Origin: Candidatus Uhrbacteria bacterium RIFOXYB12_FULL_58_10
GTDB taxonomy: Bacteria; Patescibacteriota; Patescibacteriia; UBA9934; GWF2-40-263
DNA length: 64,000 nucleotides
Assembly: GCA_943354165.1 (NCBI GenBank)
Contig: CALRBH010000005.1
Location: forward strand, 18-64,017
Direction of reading: 5' to 3'
Shown: positions 1 to 58,188 of the stretch, piece by piece
How positions within the stretch are numbered: the first letter of the stretch is position 1
Layout of the letters: every line of letters starts with the position of its first letter
Translations under genes and position numbers: made by a program
Notes under the pieces: model-generated
Told to the model about the DNA's origin: nothing
Database searches by the model: none
Seen by the model: the letters and a program-made list of their open reading frames with translations, nothing else

Positions 1-3000
1 TACACTCAATGGCGCCCGTATTCTTCTCGAGCGACTCGGTGTCGCGGAAGAAGTATGGGAGGCCGACGCGATGTTCCGTGGTGCGGTCGGTCGGATCGCG
101 GAACTCCGTACACTGGTCGAACTGTTGGGCGCACAGGCCGACGAATCCGCGGTAGGCGGCGTCGCCGTTGGTCGGCATCAGGAATTCATTTCCTCCGCGG
201 GCGCGCGGCGTATCGATGCCGAGCGTGAAGGCCAAGTCGTTGTTTACGTCCACGTATTCGCATGGTTCGTTCGTTCCCTTGCGGAACCAGCCGAAGAATC
301 GGCGGCTGCTGATGGAAACGTCCGTCTTGTACTCACAGTTCTGGCCAAGCGGGTTCTTGAAGTAGAAGTTGCCGTCCTTGGTGGACTTCCATTCGTCGCA
401 GAACAGCGCTTCGTGGCTGCAGAGCGTGTTCTTAAACACCTCATCGCCGTAAATGAGCGGATCAATGATGAGGAACTCGGAGTCAAACTTGGTGACCCGG
501 CTCTTATCGAGGTTGAACACTGGCACACCCACTTCCTCACACCCAACGGCTTCCGGAGAACACTGCCCTGCCCCGTTGTTCACAAGGAAGACAGGAACGT
601 CATTTGGAATCACGCGGGTTTCCGGACCGAGCTGGGCGGCGTTTTCTTCCGTGACGTTGCGAATGGTTCGGATCGCACCATCAAAGTCAAAGAGGCAGAA
701 CGTCTTACCTGGCTGGATGGTGCAGACGTTAGGGTTGGAGAGGTACCGGCAAGCCCCTACTGGACCGACGCAGCGCGCATTATGCGTTTCTCCGTATGGC
801 GAGGTGCTGTTGCGTTCATCGTAGAACGCCTCGCAGCCGACTTTCTGCTCCGAGCAGAGGCTGGTGAACTGGTAGAACGAGTGGCTCTGGCTGGCGCGGT
901 CCGTATAGCCCTCACAGCCGAGGAAGAACTGCGGGCTCGCGGCGCCGGTTGGCGTCTGGTCACAGGACGCTGGGACCACGAAGGAACCCTTGATGAGGGT
1001 GATGTTGTCCTCGACCTGCTTCAGGACAATGTTGTCGAGGAAGATGTCATCACTGCCGCTTGCATGAGCAAAGCGAAGGATCGCCGTGTCGGTAATCTCT
1101 GGAATCAACGATGCATCGAGCGGTCCTACCGAGTATGGAAGCCAGCCCTGCGTGAGCGTAACGGCTGGACCAAAGCTGCTTGCGATCCCGCTTCCATTGC
1201 TTGGAATAAGCGTTGCAGCGAGAGGTCCTGTCCCTTTTGCCCAGAACTCAAGGACAAAGGTCTTACCGGCCACCAGCTTCCCTTCGAAATCACCGTACGA
1301 CACGTTACCGAAACCCGTCACGCGCATCGAATGACCGCCTGCTGACACAGACTCATTGGAGACCGTTGGGGTTGCCCCACCGGCTCCGACCCATGGAGCG
1401 AAGGTACCGCTTTCAAACGATTCATTGATAACAGTCGTCGCGTTGCGCCCAGCGCCGCCGGTGTAAGAACGGCAACCGGATGCGGCAGCTGGACACTGCA
1501 CGCTTTCAGACGGGAGACCGAGATAGCGACAATCGCCGTTTGGCAAGGAGAATCCGCCCGTGGAGTTACAGTCCGCAGAAGTAGGCGCGGCGGTCTTACG
1601 ATACTGATTACAACCGACGTCCACGGTGACGGTCTTTGAGAAAAGACGATAATGAATCGCGCCGGCGCCATCGTAGAACTCACGACAATCTGGATTTGTA
1701 AAAATATCCGTGTGCTCATTACAGGAACTGTCTGCCGCGAGAACAGCGATGGAGTCGTTGCAGGTTCGTACTGTCTCGGAAAGCATCGATGAAGACGTAC
1801 ATGGAGCAGCTCCTGCGCTCGCATCGTTGGCTGGAGCTGGAATCGAAGGCTGGACTGCGTTGTTCGCTGGCTGCGTATAATCAATCACCGAGTTCGTGGT
1901 GAGATTAGACTTGAGCAACGTAAAACTCCGGAGCTGGAACCCTGACGTATCGGTTCCCTCCCAGGTGAAGAATGGCGCCTGTGTGCGATCAGCGGCGGCG
2001 GTTGCTACGGTAGATGCCTGTGCAGGATCCGGTAGCACGCACGCACGGAGGTCGGTATAGTGCTCAACGCTTTCTCCGCCGGCGCCAGGATTGAGATTGG
2101 TGAACGCGTCACATCCAACGAACTGCGCGTCACAAGACTGAGCCTTAGCGGGAATGAAGAACAATGGGAACTTGGAACCTTCATACTTGGTGGGTTCCTG
2201 CTTGAATGCCGCGTAACCGACGCATTCGCCTGGACACTGGTCTACGGCGGACGCGACGGCTGGGACGGATGGATCGCCGTCTTCCGGCGTGTAGAGCTCG
2301 CAGCCGACTTCCTGAGCCGAACAGACCTCTGCGTATTCATCACACTGCGCCGGATCCGTTGGGAGGCCCTTGCAGTTGAGATAAGCCGGAGGAACCTTGA
2401 GGGCAACGCTCTGCGCATTCGCATCGCTATATCCATTGGCAAAATCTGTGGCGCTTTCGCCGCGTTCGAGCTGGATCGCATCGACGAGAGAAGTTCCCGC
2501 AATGCGAATTTCCGCGAGGAGCGAGGTGGCACCGGTCGTGAACGTACATGAAGATCGAACGTATGCAGACGCGTTTGCTGTTGCCGGAGTTACGGAAACC
2601 GTATTTCCCGTGATGGTACATCCGCGTGCGTTTGTCCCGGCGATATTTGCCGCCGCACTTCCTCCGGCGAGCGTAGAGAGAACAATGCTTGCAGTTGGAA
2701 CGGTTGCGCCCTTGGATTCAAAGCTGAAGGTATAGAAGGATCCAGCGGAAAGCTCAATGTCCTTCTGAGAAATTGTGTCTATGGTGAGGTCTACGGCATT
2801 CCCGCCCTCTGCCGGATCAACCGATGGAGCTGGCAAGCCAGAGAACGTCCATCCCGCAAGCAACCCGCCTTCTTCATTTGGCGCCTCAAATCCAGGGTTG
2901 CGCACCTGGTTGAGCGTAACACCGGCCGCGCGCGTAAGTTCACCGCAGCCGACCTGGCTGCCGTCGCATTGCTTCACGTCCTTATTGAAATAGACGCGAT

Positions 3001-5041
3001 CTTCCGTGGCGTAAAGTCCTTCTTGCGTATTTGCGGCGGAACGAACGGCAAAAGTTTGAATCGCCGCATCATGCGCAGGAACGTTGTATGTGGCGCCCGT
3101 TGGCAGGAACGAGAAGGTGTCGTCTGTGGTGACAAGTGTTCCCTTTCCATCAAAGTATTTATTCACGCGGTACCAACGGCAACCGGCGTTCCCCTGGTTA
3201 CAGACGGAAAAATCTACCGTGTTCGCGAGGAAGGCAGTGCGCTCGTTATCGATGGTGTTGGTATAGGCAAGACAGCTTGCAAACTGTTCCGGACACTCTT
3301 CCCCGCGGAAGCGCCAGATGTTCTTTTCGCGCACGCAGTAGCCGAACCCGCCTGTACAGTTCCCCTTGCTGTCTTCCGAGAGACAGGAAAGCGTATCTGC
3401 ACAGTATGTGTTGCGCGCCCCTGAGGCTGAAGAAATCGGCACCTCGCCGTTCACAAAGGACTTACACTGTGTTTCCGGATATTTTAAAATCCAGTTTGGA
3501 TCGATGAGGTGGCAAAACGGATTCCCTCCTCCGCAATCGTTATACGAATCAACGATCTCTTTGAGGGTCTTAGGCGGATCAAACGACGCGTTGATGGTAG
3601 CAGCAATCTCCCAACCGACAGGAATAATGCGGGCCTTGCGCAGTTTCACAAGGTTGCCATAACAGAAGGCTGACGTATAACAGAACGGATCCTGATTTTT
3701 GGCTTTGTTCGTTGCTGGAAAAAGAGGCCAACTACCGTTCAATAAGCCTTCCTCTCCAGACATAGCATCGCGCACCGTGAGCGCGATCCCGGCGTCTGAG
3801 CGTGTGACGGCCGCGGCGAAATTCGGATCCATCACGCAGTTGTTGATGTTACGCGGGATGGTTCCTCCGGCCGGACACACCACAAACTCCGCCAGCAGGT
3901 TGTAGTTGGAGACGGAGATGGGGTTTGCTGTGATGAGCGACCTAAATTGCTCCTGGGCGGCTTCTCGGCCACCATTTGAAAGTGCTTCGATGTCAAACGG
4001 ATTGTCTCCCCCCACAAGCGGAGCCATCCCCTTTGAGATGCGGTCGATGGTGGTGGAGAGCAAGGTGTTCGTAAACGTAGACGCGACGTGTCCGAACAAT
4101 CCCCAGATGAGGTCGGCGTTATTGATGGCGTTCAGGATTTGGAGGTCTGCCGGCTTATCAGGATCTTCCAGTTGTGACTTTTTCACCTCAGCCTCAAGAA
4201 ACGAAGCTGGTGTCTGTACCTTGCCCGTAACCGTGTCTACAACATTCTTATACCCATTGTTAGCCAACTGTTCTTGAATATTGATCTGGCGTTTCTGGTT
4301 AGCCTGTTCCTGCGTCAAGAACGAGATGCTTATGGAAGCGGAAAGTTCGTTCCGTCCCGGAGACAATCCCGCTGAAAATCCTTTTAAAACCGCGCCGACC
4401 GGGTCCTGTGCCGTCGCCGATGTTGTCGCGATAAAACTCTCCCAGTTTTTTATGGTGGAATCAAAATCACATTTTGGCTTTCCTGGCTTGTACGCCTGCG
4501 CGATACCCAACTGAAGGGCGAGCTTAAACTCCGGCAACACGGGAGAACAGATATCAAACTTGATATCGAGTCCAGTGCTGATGACTTCCCCAAGCTGACC
4601 GATCGTCTCTCCGGCCACGTCCTTTCCAAACTTTGTCCAGGCATCCTCTGCGGTATCCGCGTACAAAAGAGGTGTTTGTCCCTTCCCTCCGGAAGCGATA
4701 AACACGGCGGATTCGTACGCAAGTCGATCCGTGACGAAGGTCAAGATGTTCAAAAGCCCGGTGACCAAGGCGATCTGCATGAGAGGGCTTACTACCAAAG
4801 TATCCACAGCGTGTGTGGCCGCTGCTGCACCTTTTGGTGGGTTTGGTGCCACCCCAGGAATCGCTCCACTCGCCGTTTCTAATGTAGCTTCAAGACCCCC
4901 GGAAACCGGGCTTGAAGGACCAGATGCTGCCAACGTCGGCCTCGGCATCAACAAAGCCGTAACCAGACCTCCCCCCACAAGCCCAACGACGGCGAGGGAA
5001 AGGAGAAATGCAGAAATGGACTGGCGGACCTTGAGCGACAT
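1..5041 (-). CDS. Giant cysteine-rich secreted/cell-surface protein, partial (C-terminus beyond window start). It has an N-terminal signal/TM segment, many Cys pairs and two CBM4_9-like beta-sandwich modules with GFE..GW motifs. More than 1,680 aa fall within the window.
   Basis: The reverse-complement frame starting at the ATG at 5041..5039 reads without any stop down to position 1. No long ORF is reported in the track for 1..5040, which fits a stop-less ORF running off the edge. The N-terminus MSLKVRQSISAFLLSLAVVGLVGG is hydrophobic, and the codon bias matches neighbouring genes. Confidence 0.75.
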   Translation of the reverse strand, partial: MSLKVRQSISAFLLSLAVVGLVGGGLVTALLMPRPTLAASGPSSPVSGGLEATLETASGAIPGVAPNPPKGAAAATHAVDTLVVSPLMQIALVTGLLNILTFVTDRLAYESAVFIASGGKGQTPLLYADTAEDAWTKFGKDVAGETIGQLGEVISTGLDIKFDICSPVLPEFKLALQLGIAQAYKPGKPKCDFDSTIKNWESFIATTSATAQDPVGAVLKGFSAGLSPGRNELSASISISFLTQEQANQKRQINIQEQLANNGYKNVVDTVTGKVQTPASFLEAEVKKSQLEDPDKPADLQILNAINNADLIWGLFGHVASTFTNTLLSTTIDRISKGMAPLVGGDNPFDIEALSNGGREAAQEQFRSLITANPISVSNYNLLAEFVVCPAGGTIPRNINNCVMDPNFAAAVTRSDAGIALTVRDAMSGEEGLLNGSWPLFPATNKAKNQDPFCYTSAFCYGNLVKLRKARIIPVGWEIAATINASFDPPKTLKEIVDSYNDCGGGNPFCHLIDPNWILKYPETQCKSFVNGEVPISSASGARNTYCADTLSCLSEDSKGNCTGGFGYCVREKNIWRFRGEECPEQFASCLAYTNTIDNERTAFLANTVDFSVCNQGNAGCRWYRVNKYFDGKGTLVTTDDTFSFLPTGATYNVPAHDAAIQTFAVRSAANTQEGLYATEDRVYFNKDVKQCDGSQVGCGELTRAAGVTLNQVRNPGFEAPNEEGGLLAGWTFSGLPAPSVDPAEGGNAVDLTIDTISQKDIELSAGSFYTFSFESKGATVPTASIVLSTLAGGSAAANIAGTNARGCTITGNTVSVTPATANASAYVRSSCTFTTGATSLLAEIRIAGTSLVDAIQLERGESATDFANGYSDANAQSVALKVPPAYLNCKGLPTDPAQCDEYAEVCSAQEVGCELYTPEDGDPSVPAVASAVDQCPGECVGYAAFKQEPTKYEGSKFPLFFIPAKAQSCDAQFVGCDAFTNLNPGAGGESVEHYTDLRACVLPDPAQASTVATAAADRTQAPFFTWEGTDTSGFQLRSFTLLKSNLTTNSVIDYTQPANNAVQPSIPAPANDASAGAAPCTSSSMLSETVRTCNDSIAVLAADSSCNEHTDIFTNPDCREFYDGAGAIHYRLFSKTVTVDVGCNQYRKTAAPTSADCNSTGGFSLPNGDCRYLGLPSESVQCPAAASGCRSYTGGAGRNATTVINESFESGTFAPWVGAGGATPTVSNESVSAGGHSMRVTGFGNVSYGDFEGKLVAGKTFVLEFWAKGTGPLAATLIPSNGSGIASSFGPAVTLTQGWLPYSVGPLDASLIPEITDTAILRFAHASGSDDIFLDNIVLKQVEDNITLIKGSFVVPASCDQTPTGAASPQFFLGCEGYTDRASQSHSFYQFTSLCSEQKVGCEAFYDERNSTSPYGETHNARCVGPVGACRYLSNPNVCTIQPGKTFCLFDFDGAIRTIRNVTEENAAQLGPETRVIPNDVPVFLVNNGAGQCSPEAVGCEEVGVPVFNLDKSRVTKFDSEFLIIDPLIYGDEVFKNTLCSHEALFCDEWKSTKDGNFYFKNPLGQNCEYKTDVSISSRRFFGWFRKGTNEPCEYVDVNNDLAFTLGIDTPRARGGNEFLMPTNGDAAYRGFVGLCAQQFDQCTEFRDPTDRTTEHRVGLPYFFRDTESLEKNTGAIEC

Positions 5042-5044
5042 ACG

Positions 5045-5671
5045 CTACGGCGTTGGGGTTTGAGTATCTACGGTCTGTTGAAAGGCTTCTCGGAACATCG
5101 TTTTCAACTCCTCATCTGTAAGGGTGTCGAGTTTTTCCTTGGGGACTCCGGCCTGCACAAGCATGGCCTTGAGCTGTTCTGGCGGCAGGTCCAGGAAGAT
5201 GTCCTTATACCCTTCCGCACTCTGGTAGTCGGCCGGAGCGTCTGGTTCTGTTGGCGGTGTTGCATTCACGGCGGCAGAAGGGCTTGCGGCCTCTTCCCCG
5301 CGTCCGCAATCTTTCCCTACCGGACAGTTTGGATCATTCCCGGAATACGTTTCCGTGCGGTCATCGAACCCATCTGAGTCAGAGTCGGCGAGGTAGGGGC
5401 TGGTCTTGAAGACGTAGAGCTCGTCGTAATCCACGAGACCGTCTCCGTCCGTGTCACGGGTCTTCATCGCCTCCTTGTCCGCGTCTTCCTTTTGCGAAGG
5501 GGTCAGGAATCGGTCCGCACTGAAGCGGGCGATCTGTGCATCGATCGGCGCACGGATGGAACTTCCAAACGCGTGGAACCCAAGGAACAGTCCCGCAATT
5601 CCCAAAACAATAATCAGAACAAAAGCCGCCTTTTGTTCCCGAGAAAGTTGCGTTCGGGGACGGACATCCAT
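5045..5671 (-). CDS. Membrane-anchored protein with thrombospondin type-3-like calcium-binding repeats (DTDGDGLVDYDE and DSDSDGFDD...NDPNCP)
   Basis: The 208-aa ORF has an N-terminal TM helix (AAFVLIIVLGIAGLFLGF) and two TSP3/OmpA-like Asp-rich motifs. Its stop lies 4 nt upstream of the giant gene start on the same strand. Confidence 0.7.
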   Translation of the reverse strand: MDVRPRTQLSREQKAAFVLIIVLGIAGLFLGFHAFGSSIRAPIDAQIARFSADRFLTPSQKEDADKEAMKTRDTDGDGLVDYDELYVFKTSPYLADSDSDGFDDRTETYSGNDPNCPVGKDCGRGEEAASPSAAVNATPPTEPDAPADYQSAEGYKDIFLDLPPEQLKAMLVQAGVPKEKLDTLTDEELKTMFREAFQQTVDTQTPTP

Positions 5672-5700: not shown

Positions 5701-5780
5701 AGTTAGTAGTAAGTAGATAGTAGTTAGTAGAGCTGACGGTGGAAACCCTACTACCTACTTACTACTATCTACTAACTAAG
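5701..5780. repeat. TAGTAG-family stop-codon-rich hairpin, copy T1 (arms of TTAGTAG/TAGATAG units, 17-nt loop)
   Basis: The left arm agttagtagtaagtagatagtagttagtag pairs with the right arm ctactacctacttactactatctactaactaag. Related copies occur at 8250..8326 and 34899..34997, with a half copy at 46400..46432. Confidence 0.85.
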
Positions 5781-8247: not shown

Positions 8248-8249
8248 GA

Positions 8250-8326
8250 GTTAGTAGTAAGTAGATAGTAGTTAGTAGGGTTGAATGACGGAAAACTACT
8301 ATCTACTTACTACTATCTACTATCTA
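8250..8326. repeat. TAGTAG-family hairpin, copy T2
   Basis: The arm gttagtagtaagtagatagtagttagtag pairs with ctactatctacttactactatctactatcta. It lies between the epimerase start and the prfB stop and provides the prfB TAG stop. Confidence 0.85.
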
Positions 8327-11748: not shown

Positions 11749-11864
11749 GGGTTGTAAGGGTTGTAATGGACTGTTAGGGGCGAAAGGTCGCTAGGAAAGC
11801 ACGGACGGTCGGGAAAACCCCTTACCACCCTTACTGCCCTTACAGCCCTTACAGCCCTTACCGC
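11749..11864. repeat. GTAAGGG-family hairpin (G family) upstream of groES
   Basis: The forward arm gggttgtaagggttgtaatggactgttagggg is complemented by ccccttaccacccttactgcccttacagcccttacagcccttacc. Confidence 0.8.
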
Positions 11865-11884
11865 CCACGGAATGTCGCTAGATA

Positions 11885-11911: not shown

Positions 11912-13253
11912 CGGCGATATTTTTATCGGTTTTTATTGACTTGTCAAGACAAATCCCACACACAATCGCTGCGAGGGCGAGCCCGCTCCAGAGGCTCCAG
12001 AGGTAATGATCAAACAGGGCAAGGACGATGAGGCAGGCGATCAACGAGGCGGCCATGATGCCGTCGCGCGTAAATAATCGAGGACGGAGCGAGCGCCACA
12101 GTTCCCTTCCCGCTAGGAGAAAGAAGAGGGAGGCGAGAAGACCGCCTTCGGCGAGGAACAGGAGGAAGGCGTTGTGGACTGGCTGGTAGGCGTAGGACGG
12201 GAATCCGGGGCGAAGTGCGGCGAGCTTCGAAGTGAATTGTGAGGTCCCGGTTCCAAGGATCGGACTCGACATGAACACCTCTGGAAATTGGGCGAGGGCG
12301 GCGTAGCGTTCTGCGATCGAACGTTCTTCCAGCCGCGCGGTCGGAATGGCGCGCGTAAGGACTTCCGTTCGGAAGACGATGAGAGTCAGGAGGATGGCGC
12401 AGCCGGCGATGCCGGCGACCGGAAGCGCGCGGCGTGGAAGTTCACGACGGGACCAGAGCAAGAGGATGCCGACGGTTCCGGTTCCAGCCGCCACCGCGAG
12501 CCAGGCGCTGCGGGAAAAGGTGAGGATCAGGGTCGCGGAAAAGATCGCGAGAGCTAAACGCGTCGCGGGCTGATGCCATGAACGGCAACCGCCCCTAACC
12601 CCTCCTTGGCGAAGGAGGGGAATCGCGCTTAGTTCCCAAATGCAAAGCAGGATACCAACTGCCAAATAGCCACCAAACACGTTTGGATGCGGGAATGAAC
12701 CATACGCACGCAGCGTGCGGATGCCTCCGGCGGATTCCACGACGGATGCGCCGAGTTCTGGCGCGTTGTGCGCGGAAAGGCCGAGCCAATGACTGGCGGG
12801 ACTATCGCCCATGAAGGTCTGAATTATCCCGAAGAGACTCACGGGCACGAGTCCGGCAATGAAGGCGTGGCGTGCCATCGAGACATCGGTTCGCTCATCG
12901 GTGATGAGGAGAGCGAGTGCCGCGGCCGCAGCAACATGGAAGAGATGCGAGAGGGCGAGGAGCGGATCTGCGCTCACGAATGAACTCGCGAGCAGGGCAA
13001 GAGCACAGAGTTTTGCCCAGCGGAAAAGTAGTTGGTAGGTGGTAGTTGGTAGTTGGGGTTTTCCGCGTGCAACAAGAAGAGCGAGTGCGAGGAGTTCGGT
13101 TGCGTACAACAGGGTTTTTCCGTACTCCCATCCCCCGCCATCAAGCGTTCTCTCCATCACGATCCACACCATCTGCCACGGCAACAGGAAAAGCAGCGCG
13201 TACAGGCCGTTGGTTACGAGGCGATCTTTGTTCATACGCCGTGAATTCGACAT
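11895..13253 (-). CDS. O-antigen ligase / O-antigen polymerase family membrane protein (Wzy_C domain)
   Basis: It is a multi-TM protein with the motif TFSRSAWLAVAAG characteristic of the WaaL/Wzy_C family. It contains an in-frame P-family hairpin at 12599..12620 encoding PLLRQGG. Confidence 0.7.
   Translation of the reverse strand: MSNSRRMNKDRLVTNGLYALLFLLPWQMVWIVMERTLDGGGWEYGKTLLYATELLALALLVARGKPQLPTTTYQLLFRWAKLCALALLASSFVSADPLLALSHLFHVAAAAALALLITDERTDVSMARHAFIAGLVPVSLFGIIQTFMGDSPASHWLGLSAHNAPELGASVVESAGGIRTLRAYGSFPHPNVFGGYLAVGILLCIWELSAIPLLRQGGVRGGCRSWHQPATRLALAIFSATLILTFSRSAWLAVAAGTGTVGILLLWSRRELPRRALPVAGIAGCAILLTLIVFRTEVLTRAIPTARLEERSIAERYAALAQFPEVFMSSPILGTGTSQFTSKLAALRPGFPSYAYQPVHNAFLLFLAEGGLLASLFFLLAGRELWRSLRPRLFTRDGIMAASLIACLIVLALFDHYLWSLWSGLALAAIVCGICLDKSIKTDKNIAASNLN
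12599..12620. repeat. P-family hairpin (cccctccttggcgaaggagggg) in-frame within the O-antigen ligase CDS
   Basis: A perfect 9-bp stem with a 4-nt loop. It is the same core as at 7438 and 25231. Confidence 0.75.
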
Positions 13254-17283: not shown

Positions 17284-17298
17284 ATTGTTCAAAACTTG

Positions 17299-17375
17299 TG
17301 GTGGACGCTGGGGGATTCGAACCCTCGACCTACTCGGTGTAAACGAGCCGCTCTAACCAGCTGAGCTAAGCGTCC
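17299..17375 (-). tRNA. tRNA-Val (anticodon TAC), CCA encoded
   Basis: The reverse complement GGACGCTTAGCTCAGCTGGTTAGAGCGGCTCGTTTACACCGAGTAGGTCGAGGGTTCGAATCCCCCAGCGTCCACCA forms a cloverleaf with a 7-bp acceptor stem, the anticodon loop TTTACAC and a TTCGAAT T-loop. There is one A:C mismatch in the T-stem. Confidence 0.9.
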
Positions 17376-17630
17376 ATAATTTTCAACTAACCAGGTCCGA
17401 CGCCCTGATGGGGTACGGACCCCCGACCGCATCAGCGCGTCGGGGCTGAGCTAAGCGTCCATAATTTTCAACTAACCAGGTCCGACGCCCTGATGGGGTA
17501 CGGACCCCCGACCGCATCAGCGCGTCGGGGCTGAGCTAAGCGTCCATAATTTTCAACTAACCAGGTCCGACGCCCTGATGGGGTACGGACCCCCGACCGC
17601 ATCAGCGCGTCGGGGCTGAGCTAAGCGTCC
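17376..17630. repeat. Three perfect tandem 85-bp units immediately 5' of tRNA-Val(TAC). In tRNA orientation each unit is the tRNA 5' 15 nt (GGACGCTTAGCTCAG), then a 51-nt GC-rich hairpin insert, then TGGTTAG and 11 nt.
   Basis: The period is 85 (units start at 17376, 17461 and 17546), and every unit ends with gctgagctaagcgtcc, identical to tRNA positions 1-16. The insert has inverted repeats (CCGACGC/GCGTCGG and CTGATG/CATCAG). A related single element lies 5' of tRNA-Ile at 34528..34620. Confidence 0.9.
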
Positions 17631-17640
17631 ATAATTGCTA

Positions 17641-17669
17641 TTGACCATGCCTTCCGCAGAGAGTATCTT
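17641..17669 (+). promoter_or_regulatory. Sigma70-like promoter for the 17737 ORF
   Basis: TTGACC, a 17-nt spacer and TATCTT, followed by the RBS AAAGGAGA 6 nt before the GTG start at 17737. Confidence 0.45.
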
Positions 17670-17736
17670 AATGCTCGCGTCTCATCAAGCCTGCCCGCCG
17701 GTAGGCAGGAGTGCGTAACCCTAAAGGAGAGTTTCC

Positions 17737-23468: not shown

Positions 23469-25178
23469 TTACATTTCCATTGCTGGCTTGATGCCGAGGA
23501 GCGCAAGACCGTTTTCGAGCACCTGCTGCACGGCCTTCACCGTCGCGAGGCGCGCCATGCGCTCTTCCCCTTCACTCGAGGCGACGGGAACGGCTTCGTA
23601 GTAGGAACTGAAGGTCTGGGCGAGGTCGAAGAGGTACTGGGCGATGAGACTTGGCTTCAACTCGGCTCCCGCGGCCGCTACGGCTTCAGGATAAGAGGCC
23701 AGCGCAAGCAGCAACCGATGCTCCAGTGGATGTGTGAACCTCAATCCCTTACCACCTTTACCGCCCTTACCACCTTTACCCGCCTTCTTGAGCACACTCG
23801 TTGCGCGGGCGAACATATAGAGGAGGTATGGGCCGGAGAAACCTTCGAACGACATGGCTTCGGCGCGATCAAAGATGATTTTCTTGTCCGGATCCTGCTT
23901 GAGCATCGCGAAGCGGATGGCGGCGAAGGCTACCGACTGCGCCGCGGCGTCGAGTTGCTTCTGGCTCCAGTCCTCATGGCGCTTCTTGGATTCCGCATGC
24001 GCCGCCGCGATCAGCTCATCGCGGAACTCTTCATACCGAATCGCGTTTCCTTTCCGGGAGGACATTGATCCTTCCTTAAGAGTGACGAATTCGTAGGAAA
24101 CGTGTTCCATCTCCTTCTCGAACCCCATCCGCTTGAGGGTCGCAAACAGCTGGCGCATGGCGAGCGTCTGGCGGCCGTCGATCACGAACAGACTGCGCGG
24201 GGCGTGATAGTCATCATCCTTGCGCATCGCGAGGGCGAGGTCCTTGGCGTTGTACAGAAGCGTCCCATCGGACTTCACAAGCAGGTTGGCTCCGAAGCCT
24301 TCATCCTCCAAGTCGACGATCCAAGCTCCTTCACTCATTTTTACGATCCCTTTCTTTTTCAAATCCTCGATGATCTCCTTGGTTTGAGGAATGAGATCGC
24401 TCTCATAATAGGTTTTCTGGATGGTGAGGCCGAGTTCCTTCTGGATGGCCTTAAAGTTCTTGAGCGACCAAGTGCGGGTTTGCTTCCAGAGGCGCACAGC
24501 GGGACCCTTGAGGTCCTCGAGCTCGTGGTGGATGGCGGAAATAGCCTGCTTCACTACTGGATCTGCAGACGCAGCGACCGCTTCCACGTACATGCGCTCA
24601 AGAAACGCGATATCATCCTCGTCCGCGCGGCGCTGGTCCTTGCTGCGCTGGATGGCCCAAAGACAGGCGGCCACGTTCGCGCCCAAATCGTTCACATAGG
24701 ACACGGGAATCACCTCATGACCGAGCGCACGCAGAAGATCAACGACCGCCTGGCCCAAAAAGAAATTTCGAAGGTGACCGACGTGCAATCCTTTGTGCGT
24801 ATTCGGGTTCGCGAACTCGACGAGGACCCGTTTGCCCTGGCCCGAATCGGACGTGCCGAACTTTTTGCCATCGGCGGCAATCTCTCCGAGGATCGCGGTG
24901 CCGAAAGAAGTGTCGTCGAACGTAAAGTTAATGTACGGACCCTTGGCCTCCGCCTTCTTAATGAATCCGTCTGGCGAAATCTTCGGCGCAAGCTCGGAAG
25001 CGATCTCCATGGGGTTCCGGCCCATTCCTTTTGCGAGGACGAAACAGGGAAACGCAATGTCGCCCATTGCTGGGTCTGGTGGGCTCGTGAGGTCTGCCAT
25101 CGTCGGCGCGTATTCCTTGCCGATCGCGGACTTCAACGCGAGCAGGACCTGCTTTTTGGCATCGAGCATGATGGACAT
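23469..25178 (-). CDS. argS: Arginine--tRNA ligase
   Basis: The 569-aa protein has a HIGH-region variant (PNTHKGLHVGHLRN), a KMSK-like motif and a DALR anticodon-binding C-terminus. It contains a GKGGKGGKGGKG insertion encoded by the G-family repeat. Confidence 0.95.
   Translation of the reverse strand: MSIMLDAKKQVLLALKSAIGKEYAPTMADLTSPPDPAMGDIAFPCFVLAKGMGRNPMEIASELAPKISPDGFIKKAEAKGPYINFTFDDTSFGTAILGEIAADGKKFGTSDSGQGKRVLVEFANPNTHKGLHVGHLRNFFLGQAVVDLLRALGHEVIPVSYVNDLGANVAACLWAIQRSKDQRRADEDDIAFLERMYVEAVAASADPVVKQAISAIHHELEDLKGPAVRLWKQTRTWSLKNFKAIQKELGLTIQKTYYESDLIPQTKEIIEDLKKKGIVKMSEGAWIVDLEDEGFGANLLVKSDGTLLYNAKDLALAMRKDDDYHAPRSLFVIDGRQTLAMRQLFATLKRMGFEKEMEHVSYEFVTLKEGSMSSRKGNAIRYEEFRDELIAAAHAESKKRHEDWSQKQLDAAAQSVAFAAIRFAMLKQDPDKKIIFDRAEAMSFEGFSGPYLLYMFARATSVLKKAGKGGKGGKGGKGLRFTHPLEHRLLLALASYPEAVAAAGAELKPSLIAQYLFDLAQTFSSYYEAVPVASSEGEERMARLATVKAVQQVLENGLALLGIKPAMEM
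23746..23784. repeat. GTAAGGG-family repeat embedded in-frame in argS, encoding (GKG)n
   Basis: cccttaccacctttaccgcccttaccacctttacccgcc is the reverse complement of GGTAAGGG/GGTAAAGG units and encodes KKAGKGGKGGKGGKG. Confidence 0.75.
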
Positions 25179-34527: not shown

Positions 34528-34620
34528 TCGGGTCCGTAGCTCAGCCCCGACGCTCCCTGATGGGAGGTCGGGGGTCCGACCGCCTCAGCGCGTCGGACCT
34601 GGTTACTCGCTCGGCAAACT
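34528..34620. repeat. tRNA-associated element 5' of tRNA-Ile(TAT): the tRNA 5' 15 nt (GGGTCCGTAGCTCAG), a 55-nt GC-rich hairpin insert, TGGTTA and 17 nt
   Basis: The insert CCCCGACGCTCCCTGATGGGAGGTCGGGGGTCCGACCGCCTCAGCGCGTCGGACC is clearly homologous to the insert in the 85-bp units at 17376..17630. Confidence 0.85.
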
Positions 34621-34621
34621 T

Positions 34622-34698
34622 GGGTCCGTAGCTCAGTTGGTTAGAGCGCCGAGCTTATACCTCGGTGGTCGATGGTTCGAGTCCATCCGGACCCACCA
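34622..34698 (+). tRNA. tRNA-Ile (anticodon TAT), an unusual UAU anticodon, CCA encoded
   Basis: GGGTCCGTAGCTCAGTTGGTTAGAGCGCCGAGCTTATACCTCGGTGGTCGATGGTTCGAGTCCATCCGGACCCACCA has a 7-bp acceptor stem, the anticodon stem CCGAG/CTCGG and the loop CTTATAC. Confidence 0.8.
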
Positions 34699-34889: not shown

Positions 34890-34898
34890 AGAACAAGA

Positions 34899-34997
34899 GT
34901 TAGTAGATAGTAGTAAGTAGTTAGTAGATAGTAGTAAGTAGTTAGTAGATTTTCCGTCGCACATCCCTACTAACTACTATCTACTAACTACTAACTC
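34899..34997. repeat. TAGTAG-family hairpin, copy T3 (left arm internally duplicated)
   Basis: gttagtagatagtagtaagtagttagtagatagtagtaagtagttagtagat, a loop, then tactaactactatctactaactactaactca. Confidence 0.85.
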
Positions 34998-46345: not shown

Positions 46346-46442
46346 TTCGACTCGCTGTTGCTCGCTCATGGTCTTTGACCATCGGAACGAATTTTTCAAA
46401 CTACTAACTACTTACTACAAACTACTAACTGTATTTTTTGCT

Positions 46443-49407: not shown

Positions 49408-49925
49408 GCGGTCCTGGGACGGCCGGACGGCTACGGTGGATCGCAAGATTCGCTGAGGAAAGTCCGAACACCCGTGGCATCGCAAGGTGCTACGCCAAGG
49501 AACGTCGCTAACGGCGACCGGGTATACCTGTGGGATGTAGAGGCGTTGGAGCAATTCACGCTTTTGGATCTCATAATAAGCCTAGGGAAAGTCTCCCCTG
49601 AAGATAGGACGGGGAGTGCGAAACCAGATCGAAAGGTCTGGGGACGTAGCCACAGAGACAATACTGACGGCCTTCGCGCAAGCCAGGCAGCTGCCTGGCA
49701 AGCATGGCCGCTCAAGGTGAAAAGTGAGGTGATGTGTCGCAAGACGCTGCACCTCTCCCTGCATGGTGACATGCAGGCGATGCAAACCCGTTCCGGTGCA
49801 AGAGCAAGTTTGGTAGCTCGCACGAGCCATGCAGCAATGTATGGACCAGAGAGATGGCCGTCTCCTGCGCACCTAACCCGTGCGGAGAAGACAAAATTCG
49901 GCTTACAGGCCGCTCCCAGGACAGC
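49408..49925 (+). ncRNA. rnpB: RNase P RNA (bacterial type A)
   Basis: The P4 strands GAGGAAAGTCCG and ACAAAATTCGGCTTACAGG are conserved, as are ACAGAGACAATAC..GGCC and AAGGTGAAAAGTG, which correspond to E. coli M1 CAACAGAGAGCAAACC and GGTAAGGGTGAAAGGGTG. P1 pairs GTCCTGGGA with TCCCAGGAC. A terminator follows. Confidence 0.85.
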
Positions 49926-51393: not shown

Positions 51394-51395
51394 AA

Positions 51396-51487
51396 GGGCT
51401 GTAAGGATGGTAAGGGCGGTAATGGACTGTAAGGGCGAAAGATCGAACCAACCCCTTACCATCCTTACAACCCTTACAGCCCTCACC
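51396..51487. repeat. GTAAGGG-family hairpin (G family) between wbaP and the GT4 gene
   Basis: gggctgtaaggatggtaagggcggtaatggactgtaagggcg pairs with ccccttaccatccttacaacccttacagccctcacc. Confidence 0.8.
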
Positions 51488-51501
51488 ACCCCACGATCCT
51501 C

Positions 51502-52590: not shown

Positions 52591-53727
52591 GTGAACATTC
52601 TCATAGACATCCGACATCTTGGAGGAGGAACTCCGAGCGGAGTCGGTCAGTACGCGCGCGAACTTTTGCGTGCGCTTCTTCCGCTTGATCCGACCGTTTC
52701 GTACACGTTGCTTTCGACCGGCTTTCGAAAACCAACGCTTCCCTTTTCACTTCCGCTAAACGCAAAACACGTTCACATCCACGCGCCCAACCGGGCGTTG
52801 TTTGCGTCCATGGCGTTGGCATTTCCGAAGCTCGATAAGCTCGTAAAAGGCCGATTCGACGTAGTTTTCGTGCCGAATCTACATGTGACTCCCCTCTCGG
52901 CTGGAATCCCGATGGTCCTCACGATCCACGACGCGAGCTGGCTGGTAAATCCGTCCTGGTTTTCTCCAAAGACAAGGCTCTGGCACAAGATCGTCCGACC
53001 GAAAGTGCTCGTCGATCGCGCAACGCGATTGATCGTTCCGTCTGAAAGCACCGCGCGAGAAGCACAGGCTTTCCTTGGCGCTGACCCGTCGAAAATTCGT
53101 ATAATCCCACACGGCGTGGATCCGATCTTTTCGCCGAAGCCGACGCCACAGGATCACGGCGTGCGATCGCGCTTGAATCTTCCGAAGCGCTTCGCTCTCT
53201 TCCTTGGAACCATCGAAGCGCGTAAAAACGTCGACGGAATCATCGAGGCGGTCCGAATGTACCGCGAGAAGACCGGCGATCGACTCGAACTCGTTCTCGT
53301 GGGATCGAAAGGTTGGGGAAGTTTGGGAGGTTCGGAAGGTTTGGGAGGACGAAAGGATGAGTGGGTTACTCGTCTAGGTTACGTCCCCGACACTGACCGT
53401 CCGGCGCTCTACCGATTCGCGTCCGTGTTTCTTTTTTCATCTCACATGGAAGGGTTCGGCATGCCTGTCCTTGAGGCGATGGCGAGCGGGACGCCGGTCA
53501 TCACCAGTCCGCGCGGTGCGCTCCCGGAAGTTGCCGGTGACGCGGCGATGTATGCAGACCCAATCGACCCGAATCGCATCGAAATGTGCCTTGAGCAATT
53601 CTTCGGTAGCCAAGAGTTACAAGCGAAATTATCGGCGCGTGGATTGGAACGAGCGAAGGGGTTTGATTGGGGAGAGACCGCGCGAAAGACCTTGGAAACA
53701 TTGAGAGAAGCGGCTGGGCACGAATAG
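52591..53727 (+). CDS. Glycosyltransferase family 4 (GT-B), with an in-frame W-family repeat insertion
   Basis: EGFGMPVLEAMASGTPVI is present. The linker LVLVGSKGWGSLGGSEGLGGRKDE is encoded by the repeat at 53311..53348. Confidence 0.85.
   Translation: MNILIDIRHLGGGTPSGVGQYARELLRALLPLDPTVSYTLLSTGFRKPTLPFSLPLNAKHVHIHAPNRALFASMALAFPKLDKLVKGRFDVVFVPNLHVTPLSAGIPMVLTIHDASWLVNPSWFSPKTRLWHKIVRPKVLVDRATRLIVPSESTAREAQAFLGADPSKIRIIPHGVDPIFSPKPTPQDHGVRSRLNLPKRFALFLGTIEARKNVDGIIEAVRMYREKTGDRLELVLVGSKGWGSLGGSEGLGGRKDEWVTRLGYVPDTDRPALYRFASVFLFSSHMEGFGMPVLEAMASGTPVITSPRGALPEVAGDAAMYADPIDPNRIEMCLEQFFGSQELQAKLSARGLERAKGFDWGETARKTLETLREAAGHE
53311..53348. repeat. W-family repeat in-frame within the GT4 gene (encodes GWGSLGGSEGLGG)
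   Basis: ggttggggaagtttgggaggttcggaaggtttgggagg. Confidence 0.8.
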
Positions 53728-54297: not shown

Positions 54298-54346
54298 AAC
54301 CCCAACCTCCCCAACCTTCCGAACTTCCCAAACCTCCCCAACCCCT
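54298..54346. repeat. W-family repeat (reverse orientation), intergenic upstream of the GT4 gene
   Basis: caaccccaacctccccaaccttccgaacttcccaaacctccccaacccc. Confidence 0.8.
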
Positions 54347-55482: not shown

Positions 55483-58188
55483 ATGGAGGAGAACGGCCGC
55501 AACAATCCACGCATTATTGCTCGGGTAAACGAAACCGCGAGCGACTCGGCGCTTGAGAGGCTTTTGCGTACGCGCCGTTCGAGTCTCACCGCGGACAACT
55601 CGCTTCCAGGCGAGGTGCGGGCGCGCAGTCTGTTCCAGCCGGAGGAACAGGGACTTTTTCTTAAACGCACTTCACACAATCCCCTTTCCCCGCACATTCT
55701 CTCCCTGCGCGCGCCCGCCCAGGAGCCAGAGGCCTCGTTTGATGGCGTGAACATGCTGGATGGCGAAGTGGTAGAAATTGTAGAAGGCGTAGAAAATGGG
55801 CTTGGTTTGGATCGCGACGACCTTGCCGGACAGCTGCTTGAAGAAACCCTGCCGCTCATCGACACTTCAAAGACTTCTTTGCAATACGTAGAAATTGCCC
55901 TGCCGGATCTTGCTGGTTTCCGCCGCGAAGCCGAGCTCCTTGGACTGAATGCCTTGGAGGTTGCGCCGGATGGCGCAGACCTCTCCGTACTGGCGCCGGT
56001 TTCCATGCCAGAGCGGCTCGCAAACATGTTCGAACTCCCCGATGCCGATGAATCGGAGGGTGAGGAAGAAGACGTTCTCATCGAATTCGCCGGACACGAC
56101 GAAGGTGTCGTGACAATCGAAGAGGTTGGGGAAGTTTGGGATGTTCGGGAAGTTGAGGAGGAAATAAACCTTCCGAACCTACCAAACCTCCCCAACATCC
56201 CAAACCTTTCGTTTTGGCGCTTGCCGCAGCTCCGCACGCTCGGAGCGTTCGTTCTGCTTTCCTTCGCCATCGTTCTGCCGATTCATGCAATGAATGTGGC
56301 GGGAATTTGGGGGAATGCCAAAGACGCTGTGACGAAGCAAGGAGAAACCGGGGCGACGTTGCTTTCTTCCGGAGCCTCTTCCGCGCTTTCGCGTGATGCG
56401 TCTGAGGCGGCGCGTGCGTTTGGCAGCGCGCAGACGAGCTTTGCGCAGGCCCAGTCGTCCGTGTCGAATCTTGGCGTCGCGGCGAACGCGATCATTTCGG
56501 CATTGCCATCAGGATCGAAGGTGGCCTCTGCGAACGCCGTGCTTACGGCCGGTGAAGCTCTCTCGATTGCTGGCGGTCGCATCTCTGAAGGCATCGCTTC
56601 GCTTGGGAACGATCCGCTCGCGAGCCCAACGGACCGCATCGCGCTCTTGCAGGCGTACCTTGAAGGCGCGCTTCCTCACCTTGAGCGTGCGGAGGCAGCC
56701 ATCGCAAAGGTGGATGTACAAACCCTCCCACCAGAAAGCCAATCACGTTTCACCATCCTTCAACAATCCATTCCAAGCGTCGTCTCCGGGATCCGCGAGC
56801 TCATCGAAGTGACCGATGCGGCCTATGCCGTGCTTGGCGGAACCGGGACCAAGCGCTACCTCGCCATCTTCCAGAACAATACGGAAATTCGCCCAACAGG
56901 TGGGTTCATGGGGAGCTTCGCCGAGATGGATATTCGCAAAGGCGAGATCGCCAAGCTCACCATTCCGGGCGGCGGAACGTACGATCTGCGCGCGGGCGTC
57001 ATGAAGCCGTTCATTTCTCCGAAACCACTCAGACTCCTCTCCGCCGCATGGGAATTCCAGGACGCGAACTGGTTCCCAGACTTCCCTACGAGCGCGCGCC
57101 AGATCATGCAGTTCTATGAACATGCCGGACAACCAACGGTAGATGGGGTGATCGCCGTGAACGCCACGTTCGTCGCCTCCCTCCTCGATCTCCTTGGCTC
57201 CATAGAGATGCCGGAATACGGACGCACCATCGACAGCAAGAATTTCCTCCTCGAGACGCAGAAAATCGTAGAGAATGAATACGATCGCGACGAGAACAAG
57301 CCGAAGGCGTTCATCGGCGACCTCGCACCGAAACTTCTTGAGAAGGCTAAGGCGCTTCCGCCAGAAGGATTCCTCGCCTTCCTCGACACCTTGCAGCAAG
57401 GACTCTCTTCCCGCGACATCCAGATCTACTTCGATGATCAGGAGCTCCAGAAACAGGTGATTGAACGCGGATGGGGCGGCGAGCTCAAGTGGAGCGACGG
57501 CGATTACTTCATGGCCGTGGACACCAACCTCGGCGGCGGGAAAACAGACGGCGTCATCCAGCAGAAGATCGACATAAAGGTGAACATTGAGGCCGATGGA
57601 ACCGTTACGGACTCCGTCACGGTCACCCGCACGCACTTTGGCCAGCCAGGAAGCGACTTCTCCGGAGTGAACAACGTCGATTACCTGCGCTTATACGTTC
57701 CCAAAGGCAGTGAGCTTCTCTCAGCCGACGGGTTCTCCATTCCAGACGCCTCCCTCTTCGACGCTCCGATGACGGATTGGCTCATCGACGATGACTTGAT
57801 CTACGGATTGGACGGTGCAAAGACGGATGCGAAGAGCGGAACGGACATCTTCGAGGAATCCGGGAAGACCGTATTCGGCAACTGGATCCAAACGAAACCA
57901 GGCGCCACATCCACCGCACATTTCACCTATCGACTGCCGTTCAAGGTGGAGGTCGGGAAGGCGGATCCTACGCTCATCGACCGGCTGAAGACTTCCCTAG
58001 GGGTCCCAAACACCGGCCGCTACACACTCACCCTCCAGAAGCAGTCCGGGATCCTCGATCGCACCACGACCGTTCACCTTACCGCACCTGAAGCCTGGAA
58101 TCTCGCCTGGTCTTCGCATGAAACGGACGGCGTATCCTTCACCAACGCCATGGATTCATTCTTCGCTACCATCTTTGAACGCAACTAG
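55483..58188 (+). CDS. DUF4012 domain protein (membrane-anchored, cell-envelope glycan associated), carrying an in-frame W-family hairpin
   Basis: The 901-aa protein has an internal TM helix (LGAFVLLSFAIVLPI) and the DUF4012-like core (YLAIFQNNTEIRPTGGFMGSFA...DANWFPDFP). The region 56124..56211 encodes EVGEVWDVREVEEEINLPNLPNLPNIPNL. Confidence 0.7.
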   Translation: MEENGRNNPRIIARVNETASDSALERLLRTRRSSLTADNSLPGEVRARSLFQPEEQGLFLKRTSHNPLSPHILSLRAPAQEPEASFDGVNMLDGEVVEIVEGVENGLGLDRDDLAGQLLEETLPLIDTSKTSLQYVEIALPDLAGFRREAELLGLNALEVAPDGADLSVLAPVSMPERLANMFELPDADESEGEEEDVLIEFAGHDEGVVTIEEVGEVWDVREVEEEINLPNLPNLPNIPNLSFWRLPQLRTLGAFVLLSFAIVLPIHAMNVAGIWGNAKDAVTKQGETGATLLSSGASSALSRDASEAARAFGSAQTSFAQAQSSVSNLGVAANAIISALPSGSKVASANAVLTAGEALSIAGGRISEGIASLGNDPLASPTDRIALLQAYLEGALPHLERAEAAIAKVDVQTLPPESQSRFTILQQSIPSVVSGIRELIEVTDAAYAVLGGTGTKRYLAIFQNNTEIRPTGGFMGSFAEMDIRKGEIAKLTIPGGGTYDLRAGVMKPFISPKPLRLLSAAWEFQDANWFPDFPTSARQIMQFYEHAGQPTVDGVIAVNATFVASLLDLLGSIEMPEYGRTIDSKNFLLETQKIVENEYDRDENKPKAFIGDLAPKLLEKAKALPPEGFLAFLDTLQQGLSSRDIQIYFDDQELQKQVIERGWGGELKWSDGDYFMAVDTNLGGGKTDGVIQQKIDIKVNIEADGTVTDSVTVTRTHFGQPGSDFSGVNNVDYLRLYVPKGSELLSADGFSIPDASLFDAPMTDWLIDDDLIYGLDGAKTDAKSGTDIFEESGKTVFGNWIQTKPGATSTAHFTYRLPFKVEVGKADPTLIDRLKTSLGVPNTGRYTLTLQKQSGILDRTTTVHLTAPEAWNLAWSSHETDGVSFTNAMDSFFATIFERN
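56124..56211. repeat. Complete W-family hairpin (forward and reverse arms) embedded in-frame in the DUF4012 gene
   Basis: The forward arm ggttggggaagtttgggatgttcgggaagttgaggagg, then aaataaa, then the reverse arm ccttccgaacctaccaaacctccccaacatcccaaacctttcg. Both arms are translated. Confidence 0.8.

Follow-up and report, generated by a model that had tools for sequence, protein, structure and literature searches.

How can a small element land in a tRNA gene and still spare its host, when the genome is tiny? This question is raised by a 64-kb stretch of DNA (contig CALRBH010000005.1; hereafter the window) from a groundwater Candidatus Uhrbacteria, a member of the Candidate Phyla Radiation (CPR/Patescibacteria), as assigned through NusA and RluA homologues. 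Genomes of this group are tiny, most of their tRNA genes are presumably single-copy, and an element landing in them must leave the host unharmed. In the window, perfect 85-bp tandem units stand directly upstream of the gene for tRNA-Val(UAC), each composed of the 5′ end of this tRNA interrupted at the D-loop position by a double-hairpin insert, to which we refer as E. A single unit of the same architecture precedes the gene for tRNA-Ile(UAU). The arrangement appears to be one solution to the problem, of which we found no description: the leader retains the 5′ end that was interrupted, and a short duplication provides a new, clean one.

Repeat units upstream of two tRNA genes

Analysis of the window with Tandem Repeats Finder revealed a long perfect array at 17360-17636 (period 85, 3.3 copies, 100% matches, score 554), the sole one of this kind in the window. 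A first-pass annotation, made from the letters of the window alone, had reported three perfect tandem 85-bp units here; their perfection, tandem arrangement and length hold, and their number is uncertain, as the other assembly described below has two. Read in tRNA orientation (minus strand), the native leader ending in GGTCAATAGCAATTAT is followed by three units and then by the intact tRNA-Val, which begins GGACGCTTAGCTCAG-C-TGGTTAGAGC. The intact gene occupies 17299-17375, has its CCA encoded, and was recognized by ARAGORN and by the Rfam tRNA model (66.7 bits), in agreement with the earlier statement that the tRNA is preserved downstream of the array. Each unit consists of GGACGCTTAGCTCAG (tRNA nt 1-15), the insert E (CCCCGACGCGCTGATGCGGTCGGGGGTCCGTACCCCATCAGGGCGTCGGACC; 52 nt, or 51 nt if one C is assigned to C16), TGGTTAG and the filler TTGAAAATTAT, which confirms the anatomy first proposed (tRNA 5′ 15 nt, hairpin insert at the D-loop position, TGGTTAG, 11 nt). 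The tRNA-proximal unit lies at 17376-17460, with tRNA nt 1-15 at 17446-17460, E at 17394-17445, TGGTTAG at 17387-17393 and the filler at 17376-17386. The middle unit (17461-17545, E at 17479-17530) has the same sequence as the other two and is absent from the alternative assembly, and the promoter-proximal unit (17546-17630, E at 17564-17615) adjoins the native leader with its tRNA 5′ fragment. Every unit ends with the AATTAT of the native leader (17631-17636), and the direct repeat around each E plus its tail therefore amounts to 21 nt.

The homologous element noticed earlier upstream of tRNA-Ile is real and was placed at 34530-34621 on the plus strand. It starts with a copy of tRNA-Ile nt 1-15 (GGGTCCGTAGCTCAG, 34530-34544), continues with the Ile version of E (CCCCGACGCTCCCTGATGGGAGGTCGGGGGTCCGACCGCCTCAGCGCGTCGGACC, 34545-34599; 55 nt, CCCCGAC-loop-GTCGGGG then GTCCGAC-loop-GTCGGAC-C; 68.2 bits with the covariance model described below), and ends at 34600-34621 with the D-loop remainder TGGTTA (34600-34605) and a 16-nt filler, CTCGCTCGGCAAACTT (34606-34621). 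The intact tRNA-Ile(UAU), GGGTCCGTAGCTCAG-T-TGGTTAGAGC, follows at 34622-34698 (plus strand; ARAGORN and Rfam). The three conserved blocks occur at four places only in 64 kb, namely the three Val units and the Ile unit, against a chance expectation of 0.2-0.6. At both loci E exactly replaces tRNA nt 16, being inserted in the D-loop between G15 and T17 at the centre of CAG|CTG, and the fragment stops at A21/G22 before a short unique filler. The 5′ segment is locus-specific and always equals that of the adjacent tRNA (GGACGCT... vs. GGGTCCG...); E with its GCTCAG/CTGGTTA flanks is common to both loci. The direct repeats of tRNA sequence around the insert measure 21 nt at the Val locus and 15 nt at the Ile locus.

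The number of units was compared with an independent assembly of the same scaffold (European Nucleotide Archive ERZ28613056, scaffold_448), which has two Val units vs. three in the window. Outside the array, the scaffold is identical to the window over the 5.7 kb and 6.4 kb checked on its two sides and over another stretch of 20.7 kb, and the single Ile unit does not differ either. Two Logan contigs (run SRR7054680) stop exactly at the array, one at the last unique 31-mer towards the promoter and the other at the first unique 31-mer towards the tRNA. Such stops are expected where a de Bruijn graph branches into unit-to-unit and unit-to-tRNA continuations, and the reads therefore contain at least two units. 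At least two Val units are thus real, and short-read assemblies cannot decide between two, three or a mixture.

Upstream of the entire array, alignment with the region preceding tRNA-Val in a unit-less relative revealed a promoter-like block, gcTTGATG-N12-TAAGAT (17665-17690, minus strand). The block, in the form gcTTGAT(G/A)-N12-TAAGAT followed by GTCAAT, is kept in both genomes, and in the window the native leader (GTCAAT) is joined to the most upstream unit. A sigma-70 consensus scan did not flag the block at 17665-17690. From the position of this conserved block we infer that the Val units would be transcribed within a long 5′ leader of tRNA-Val.

Related Uhrbacteria share the gene order DAGK - tRNA-Leu(gag) - tRNA-Val(tac) - small membrane protein - YraN - NusA - YidC; a 103-aa neighbour protein, tried as a probe for relatives, proved to be an orphan. 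The tRNA-Val loci of L122 (NusA 76% identical) and of L123 and L125 (75%) have a short leader and no unit, and no unit was found at the tRNA-Ile(tat) locus of L134 (RluA 65% identical). Since the units are absent at the orthologous loci of relatives, they are recent insertions into the tRNA leader. Both Val and Ile units are lineage-specific additions and not conserved leader elements, and the alternative offered in the first-pass annotation, a conserved leader or processing module, is disfavoured accordingly.

Two further observations were made at these loci. In L123 (7412-8299) the strand of tRNA-Val(tac) relative to NusA is opposite to that in the window, and a 223-aa open reading frame (ORF) with a faint LAGLIDADG_3 match lies between tRNA-Val(tac) and tRNA-Leu(gag); the sister contig L125 has no called gene there. 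The TAT (UAU) anticodon of tRNA-Ile at 34622-34698 is also kept in a related Uhrbacteria (L134, 3730-3804). In most bacteria AUA is read by tRNA-Ile(CAU) plus lysidine, and the Uhrbacteria clade may use the rarer UAU strategy.

The double-hairpin element E within and outside tRNA loci

E is built of two adjacent hairpins, CCCCGAC-loop-GTCGGGG followed directly by GTCCGAC-loop-GTCGGAC(C). Its copies range from 46 to 55 nt and share four invariant 7-nt arms (CCCCGAC, GTCGGGG, GTCCGAC and GTCGGAC). The Val and Ile versions agree in all four arms and differ in the loops; in hairpin 1 the upper stem carries a compensating change, CGC/GCG in Val vs. CTCCC/GGGAG in Ile, with the TGAT loop unchanged. 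Hairpin 2 is approximately the reverse complement of hairpin 1, and the opposite strand scores about 32 bits with the E covariance model. The window copies fold much more stably than shuffled sequences (z-scores of −4.2 to −5.7), and the z-scores of all copies except that in L128 (−1.4) range from −3.2 to −5.7. The Val version can alternatively fold into a single long hairpin. Because E sits in a CAG|CTG palindrome, its tRNA-derived flanks, (T)TAGC-CAG and CTG-GTTA(G), can also pair and close a three-way junction.

The covariance model was built from five copies and applied to the window and to about 115 kb of relatives and E-bearing loci, where it found no copies beyond those already known. 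Screening with Rfam 15 returned only tRNAs and RNase P RNA at the gathering score and nothing credible over the units at an E-value ≤ 10. A hammerhead-like reading of CUGAUG in the E loops was rejected, as the motif is placed within the loop of a hairpin and a GAAA core is lacking.

Joint Genome Institute (JGI) metagenomes, scanned with a strict three-block pattern, gave three matches. In L126, from a genome of 33% GC, E lies in frame within leuS as a GC-rich island encoding APTLIKNNVGGPTGSVGQ; it adds 17 aa (17 in-frame codons) that align to a gap in solved LeuRS structures. In L127 it is located upstream of rpsB, with a terminator directly before it; L132, with an RpsB of the same 90%-identity cluster, keeps the terminator and has no E there. 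The match in L128 is weaker, with one arm imperfect and the low fold score given above. The E-like copies at 5256-5305 of L126 and 8421-8464 of L128 are located inside coding sequences in the same reading frame, and the peptides derived from them are alike (PTL..N(N)VGGPTGSVG and PTLDNVGGPMGIVG). None of the three copies has tRNA-like flanks or a long flanking duplication, and those in L126 and L127 show no consistent short duplication at their flanks.

As E occurs in these places without a tRNA piece, it is a stand-alone, patchily distributed mini-element. Its absence from relatives and the recurrence of the same double hairpin in unrelated contexts bear out the first-pass description of the insert as a discrete, structured and apparently mobile miniature element. 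The same observations do not support the accompanying proposal that the element carries its own tRNA 5′ copy: the segment differs between the two loci, matches the adjacent tRNA each time and is missing from E elsewhere, and the 5′ pieces are therefore host-derived local duplications and not cargo of the element.

Other searches for E gave chance or unrelated matches. Scanning of viral contigs with two E patterns yielded nothing for one and a single chance match (L129) for the other, and blastn against phage and plasmid collections found nothing relevant. The loose pattern CCCCGAC-N8-24-GTCGGGGGTCC was also run on genome contigs and discarded: among the matches listed, hits were chance matches in high-GC genomes, and L009 and L064, listed matches that also contain CTCAGCCCCGAC, proved to be unrelated repeats or coding sequence. 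In the comparison of flanking sequences, the Val filler TTGAAAATTAT(G) at 17376-17386 was seen to resemble the tRNA-Val 3′ trailer (TTGAACAATATG, 17285-17298) at 10/12 positions, and E in L127 has a 5′ flank (ATAATGTTGAAC, 136-150) that resembles the reverse complement of this filler, also at 10/12. Both resemblances may reflect either chance in AT-rich sequence or a common origin.

The occurrence of a double-hairpin element of about 50 nt with invariant arms across genomes of 33-56% GC, tolerated even in a protein-coding gene, points to a hairpin-recognising enzyme. The invariance of the arms in genomes of very different base composition speaks for recognition by a protein, and an enzyme supplied in trans probably uses them as its recognition sites. 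E itself is probably a very small selfish DNA element.

Proposed origin of the interrupted and restored tRNA 5′ ends

We tentatively favour an explanation in which E is a non-autonomous hairpin element hitting the D-loop site, only those hits survive that are coupled to a duplication of the 5′ end, and the array has grown by slippage. Served in trans, E would target the D-arm loop of tRNA genes and would have landed at the same D-loop place twice. Insertion into an indispensable tRNA gene would be lethal (the single-copy status of these tRNAs being deduced from the small size of CPR genomes), and only events with a short local duplication of the 5′ end would become visible. The native promoter and leader would keep the original 5′ end with its interruption (nt 1-15, E, nt 17-21/22), and an intact tRNA would be restored by a clean copy of nt 1-22 that is accompanied by up to 6 leader nt and attached via a few filler nt. 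The duplication coupled to the insertion may have been earlier or simultaneous, or may have come about via templated repair. The units would form part of a long 5′ leader cut off by RNase P. A repeat-insert-repeat structure with a 21-nt direct repeat would be prone to expand or contract in 85-bp steps via slipped-strand or unequal recombination, and such steps would explain both the perfect copies and the discrepancy of two vs. three units.

Several observations weigh against this explanation. The Ile unit has C where tRNA-Ile has T16. The same architecture is found at both loci, both truncated at A21/G22, which suggests a mechanism more specific than selection alone; the identical layout together with C16 in the Ile unit hints at a reproducible process and not at pure chance plus selection. 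The fillers (TTGAA... and CTCGCTCGGCAAACTT) find no explanation in the native leader, the trailer or the rest of the window, where fillers and diverged E copies were sought by mismatch regular expressions, shared k-mers and the covariance model with no further matches. At the other four tRNAs examined there were no E-free duplications of 5′ fragments. The explanation needs two events per locus, a duplication and then an insertion, or one complex event, and it draws on only two tRNA-associated loci and three outside copies, of which L128 is weak. Domains of integrases, transposases or recombinases, and Y1_Tnp, were found neither among the called genes of 11.7-64 kb nor in the scanned ORFs of 0-9.3 kb, which also means that the partner integrase or recombinase sought after the first-pass annotation did not turn up in these parts. 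As no transposase or recombinase was found, mobility is deduced from presence and absence only.

A bolder version we regard as possible but doubtful: the E units would be a self-propagating system exploiting the conserved tRNA D-arm and rebuilding the 5′ end of its target. It could take the form of a 5′-regenerating cassette with a hairpin-binding recombinase or HUH enzyme, or of a module homing or switching templates between tRNA leaders via TAGCTCAG. If true, selfish DNA would have a previously undescribed route into the essential single-copy RNA genes of minimal CPR genomes. More generally, a mechanism intrinsic to the element would mean that tRNA genes are targeted in a new mode. Otherwise, the locus still offers a natural example of selection filtering insertions in essential RNA genes, and of how arrays resembling variable-number tandem repeats (VNTRs) originate in tRNA leaders.

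Rather unlikely, in our judgement, is the possibility that the whole 85-92-nt unit is a mini integrative cassette, site-specific for the first 15-21 nt of its cognate tRNA, which brings its own copy of them and builds the array by serial integration. Formally the structure reads attL - insert - attR, with tRNA sequence directly repeated over 15-21 nt and the native leader on the upstream copy, the four repeated arms of E resemble protein-binding sites, and perfect tandem units fit accretion. The model would be a 5′-side mirror image of the classical islands that target the tRNA 3′ end. However, an att-site model calls for a tRNA-identical segment wherever E occurs, and the copies of E in other genomes (L126, L127) carry none. 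A crossover in the shared TAGCTCAG would give chimeric, dead tRNAs, and a crossover within nt 1-15 leaves the TGGTTA(G) remainder after E unaccounted for. No integrase domain was present among the window genes called or scanned, where an enzyme encoded elsewhere could act in trans, and an 85-bp double-stranded circle is physically implausible. Because the two units differ in their tRNA-specific 5′ segments and in their fillers, every cassette would need prior adaptation to one tRNA, and the model is thus less parsimonious than local duplication.

Also unlikely is templated repair in place of transposition, through microhomology-mediated break-induced replication or fork stalling and template switching (MMBIR/FoSTeS). 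Here a fork broken or stalled in a highly transcribed tRNA gene would switch via TAGCTCAG to an E already lying in D-arm context, copy E, CTGGTTA and the donor flank (the future filler), and switch back to the sister copy, either at its +1 or upstream of that point. A single step would yield the tRNA-specific 5′ piece, the GCTCAG-E-CTGGTTA module, C16 in the Ile unit, unique fillers and different E variants, and among the readings considered it gives the best account of C16 and the fillers. Yet the 64-kb window holds no donor copy, a first E in D-arm context is required, and L126 and L127 show E entering sites with no D-arm homology; the scheme is purely inferential.

Improbable is a functional role in which the units are a structured leader module, selected for processing, stability, regulation or as a decoy with the tRNA 5′ strand, and homogenised by gene conversion. 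The strong and significantly stable fold, with tRNA-derived flanks able to close a three-way junction, the location of the units within the presumed transcript, and the identity of the 22-nt tRNA pieces to their own tRNAs despite differing E loops are consistent with such a role. Against it, the units are missing at the same tRNAs in all relatives examined, elsewhere E is located within a coding sequence and within an unrelated intergenic region, no Rfam family matches, and the unit count varies (two vs. three).

Other schemes were considered and rejected. Whole-gene tandem duplication followed by deletion could read the Val filler TTGAA|AATTAT as trailer plus leader (10/12 to the 3′ trailer), and the Ile filler does not fit it; unequal exchange with the native leader predicts junctions that differ from those observed. 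An integron attC site, IS200/IS605-type ends, a casposon-like 15-bp target duplication and an 85-nt circle, each worked through by hand, fail on the TGGTTA(G) remainder and the tRNA-specific 5′ piece. Finally, an assembly artefact (chimeric units or a spurious repeat) is highly improbable: short-read assemblers handle perfect 85-bp repeats poorly and the two assemblies differ in unit count, but the junctions of leader, fragment and E and of filler and tRNA are seen in independent Logan contigs, which end where at least two units force branching, the Ile unit is the same in the second assembly, and a second, diverged copy with compensating changes is incompatible with an artefact. In practice, such units make pre-tRNA leaders longer, interrupt short-read assemblies and may lead tRNA annotation astray.

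Other features of the window and comparison with known systems

Elsewhere in the window, the RNase P RNA (bacterial type A, 49415-49922) is 508 nt long vs. a 367-position model. It carries several smaller insertions and one of 114 nt near model position 92 (about 49522-49636), which was checked as a possible copy of E and is not E-like. Stop-codon-rich heptamer arrays (AGTTAGT/CTACTAA) form long intergenic inverted repeats at 5704-5778, 8249-8321, 13028-13056, 34898-34996 and 46399-46430. Two of them lie just downstream of tRNA genes, and the short-read contigs L131 and L133 end near one. Tandem arrays of 9- and 18-mers of the CCCTTACAG/AGGTTCGGA type were located at 11819-11866, 23746-23786, 51394-51491, 53310-53356, 54300-54343 and 56166-56208. 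A stretch of about 3 kb (1884-5045) has no ORF of ≥180 aa, and its small ORFs are without a Pfam match; it may be part of a gene running past the window end, or non-coding.

Among known systems, the architecture of E is closest to that of REPINs, which are REP (repetitive extragenic palindromic) doublets forming hairpins and mobilised by RAYT/IS200-like Y1 transposases (Bertels & Rainey 2011, PMC3116915). REPINs can fold in two ways, as one long hairpin or as a 'clover' of two hairpins, the latter being presumably what the enzyme recognises (section 14, Fig. S11, PMC3116915). E likewise joins two inverted REP-like hairpins in one unit, has conserved arms, less conserved spacers and a long-hairpin alternative fold, and both occur in clusters or tandem arrays. 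At 46-55 nt, however, E is half the size or less of the 71-110 nt REP spacings (PMC3116915). It is not confined to extragenic space, being found at the tRNA D-loop position and in coding sequence, and its host is a CPR bacterium. In 64 kb it is present at two loci (four copies), both tRNA leaders, and no RAYT was found among the window genes called or scanned. To our knowledge, REPINs are not known with duplicated gene 5′ ends.

By behaviour, E can be likened to Rickettsia palindromic elements (RPEs), which are about 100-150 bp long and very numerous. RPEs are palindromic and invade coding and non-coding sequence including RNA genes, comparable to E lying in frame in the leuS of L126 and at the tRNA D-loop position. 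We know of no report of RPEs with regenerating duplications of tRNA 5′ ends. In R. felis, 85 of the 728 RPEs are within ORFs and 3 in RNA genes (PMC1166351).

Repetitive hairpin-forming elements have also been described in mitochondrial genomes, among them double-hairpin elements in non-metazoan mitochondrial DNA (work cited in PMC2800124). They are, like E, short and GC-rich, with one or two hairpins, sporadic and apparently mobile, and are intergenic or occasionally placed in rRNA or protein genes. They differ in being organellar and of unrelated sequence, and neither tRNA D-loop targeting nor duplication of a 5′ fragment is known for them.

Elements that target tRNA genes share with the units an insert flanked by direct repeats of the tRNA, an intact tRNA that is kept, and the possibility of tandem accretion. 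Classical tyrosine-integrase islands and prophages replace the 3′ part of the tRNA by a crossover in the anticodon or T loop and carry an integrase, and their decayed, integrase-less derivatives accrete in tandem. In contrast, the units have a duplicated 5′ part and an insert of 64-78 nt, no integrase was seen, and the core occurs elsewhere with no tRNA repeats. As for miniature inverted-repeat transposable elements (MITEs), the ends of E are inverted copies, but a target-site duplication of fixed length is missing, since the tRNA duplications are 15 and 21 nt. The small dispersed repeats (SDRs) of Nostoc, which are cyanobacterial and 21-27 nt long, resemble E in being hairpin elements that look mobile, are far smaller than MITEs and insert into other structured sequences; we know of no duplication of tRNA fragments described for them. 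The term 'small dispersed repeats' is mentioned in PMC3116915.

A tRNA intron or split tRNA (group I/II, bulge-helix-bulge) was rejected as an explanation, as the fragment stops at A21/G22 and is followed by a filler and a new, uninterrupted tRNA. A survey of tRNA introns in Patescibacteria describes group I introns in the anticodon loop, and the text searched contains no occurrence of 'hairpin', 'duplicat' or 'pseudogene' (PMC13011429). E is thus of a kind already known, that of tiny palindromic selfish repeats, and stands apart from REPINs, RPEs and the mitochondrial elements in its size, its host, its repeated hit on the D-loop and the duplication that regenerates the tRNA 5′ end, an outcome of insertion that is unexplained and possibly novel.

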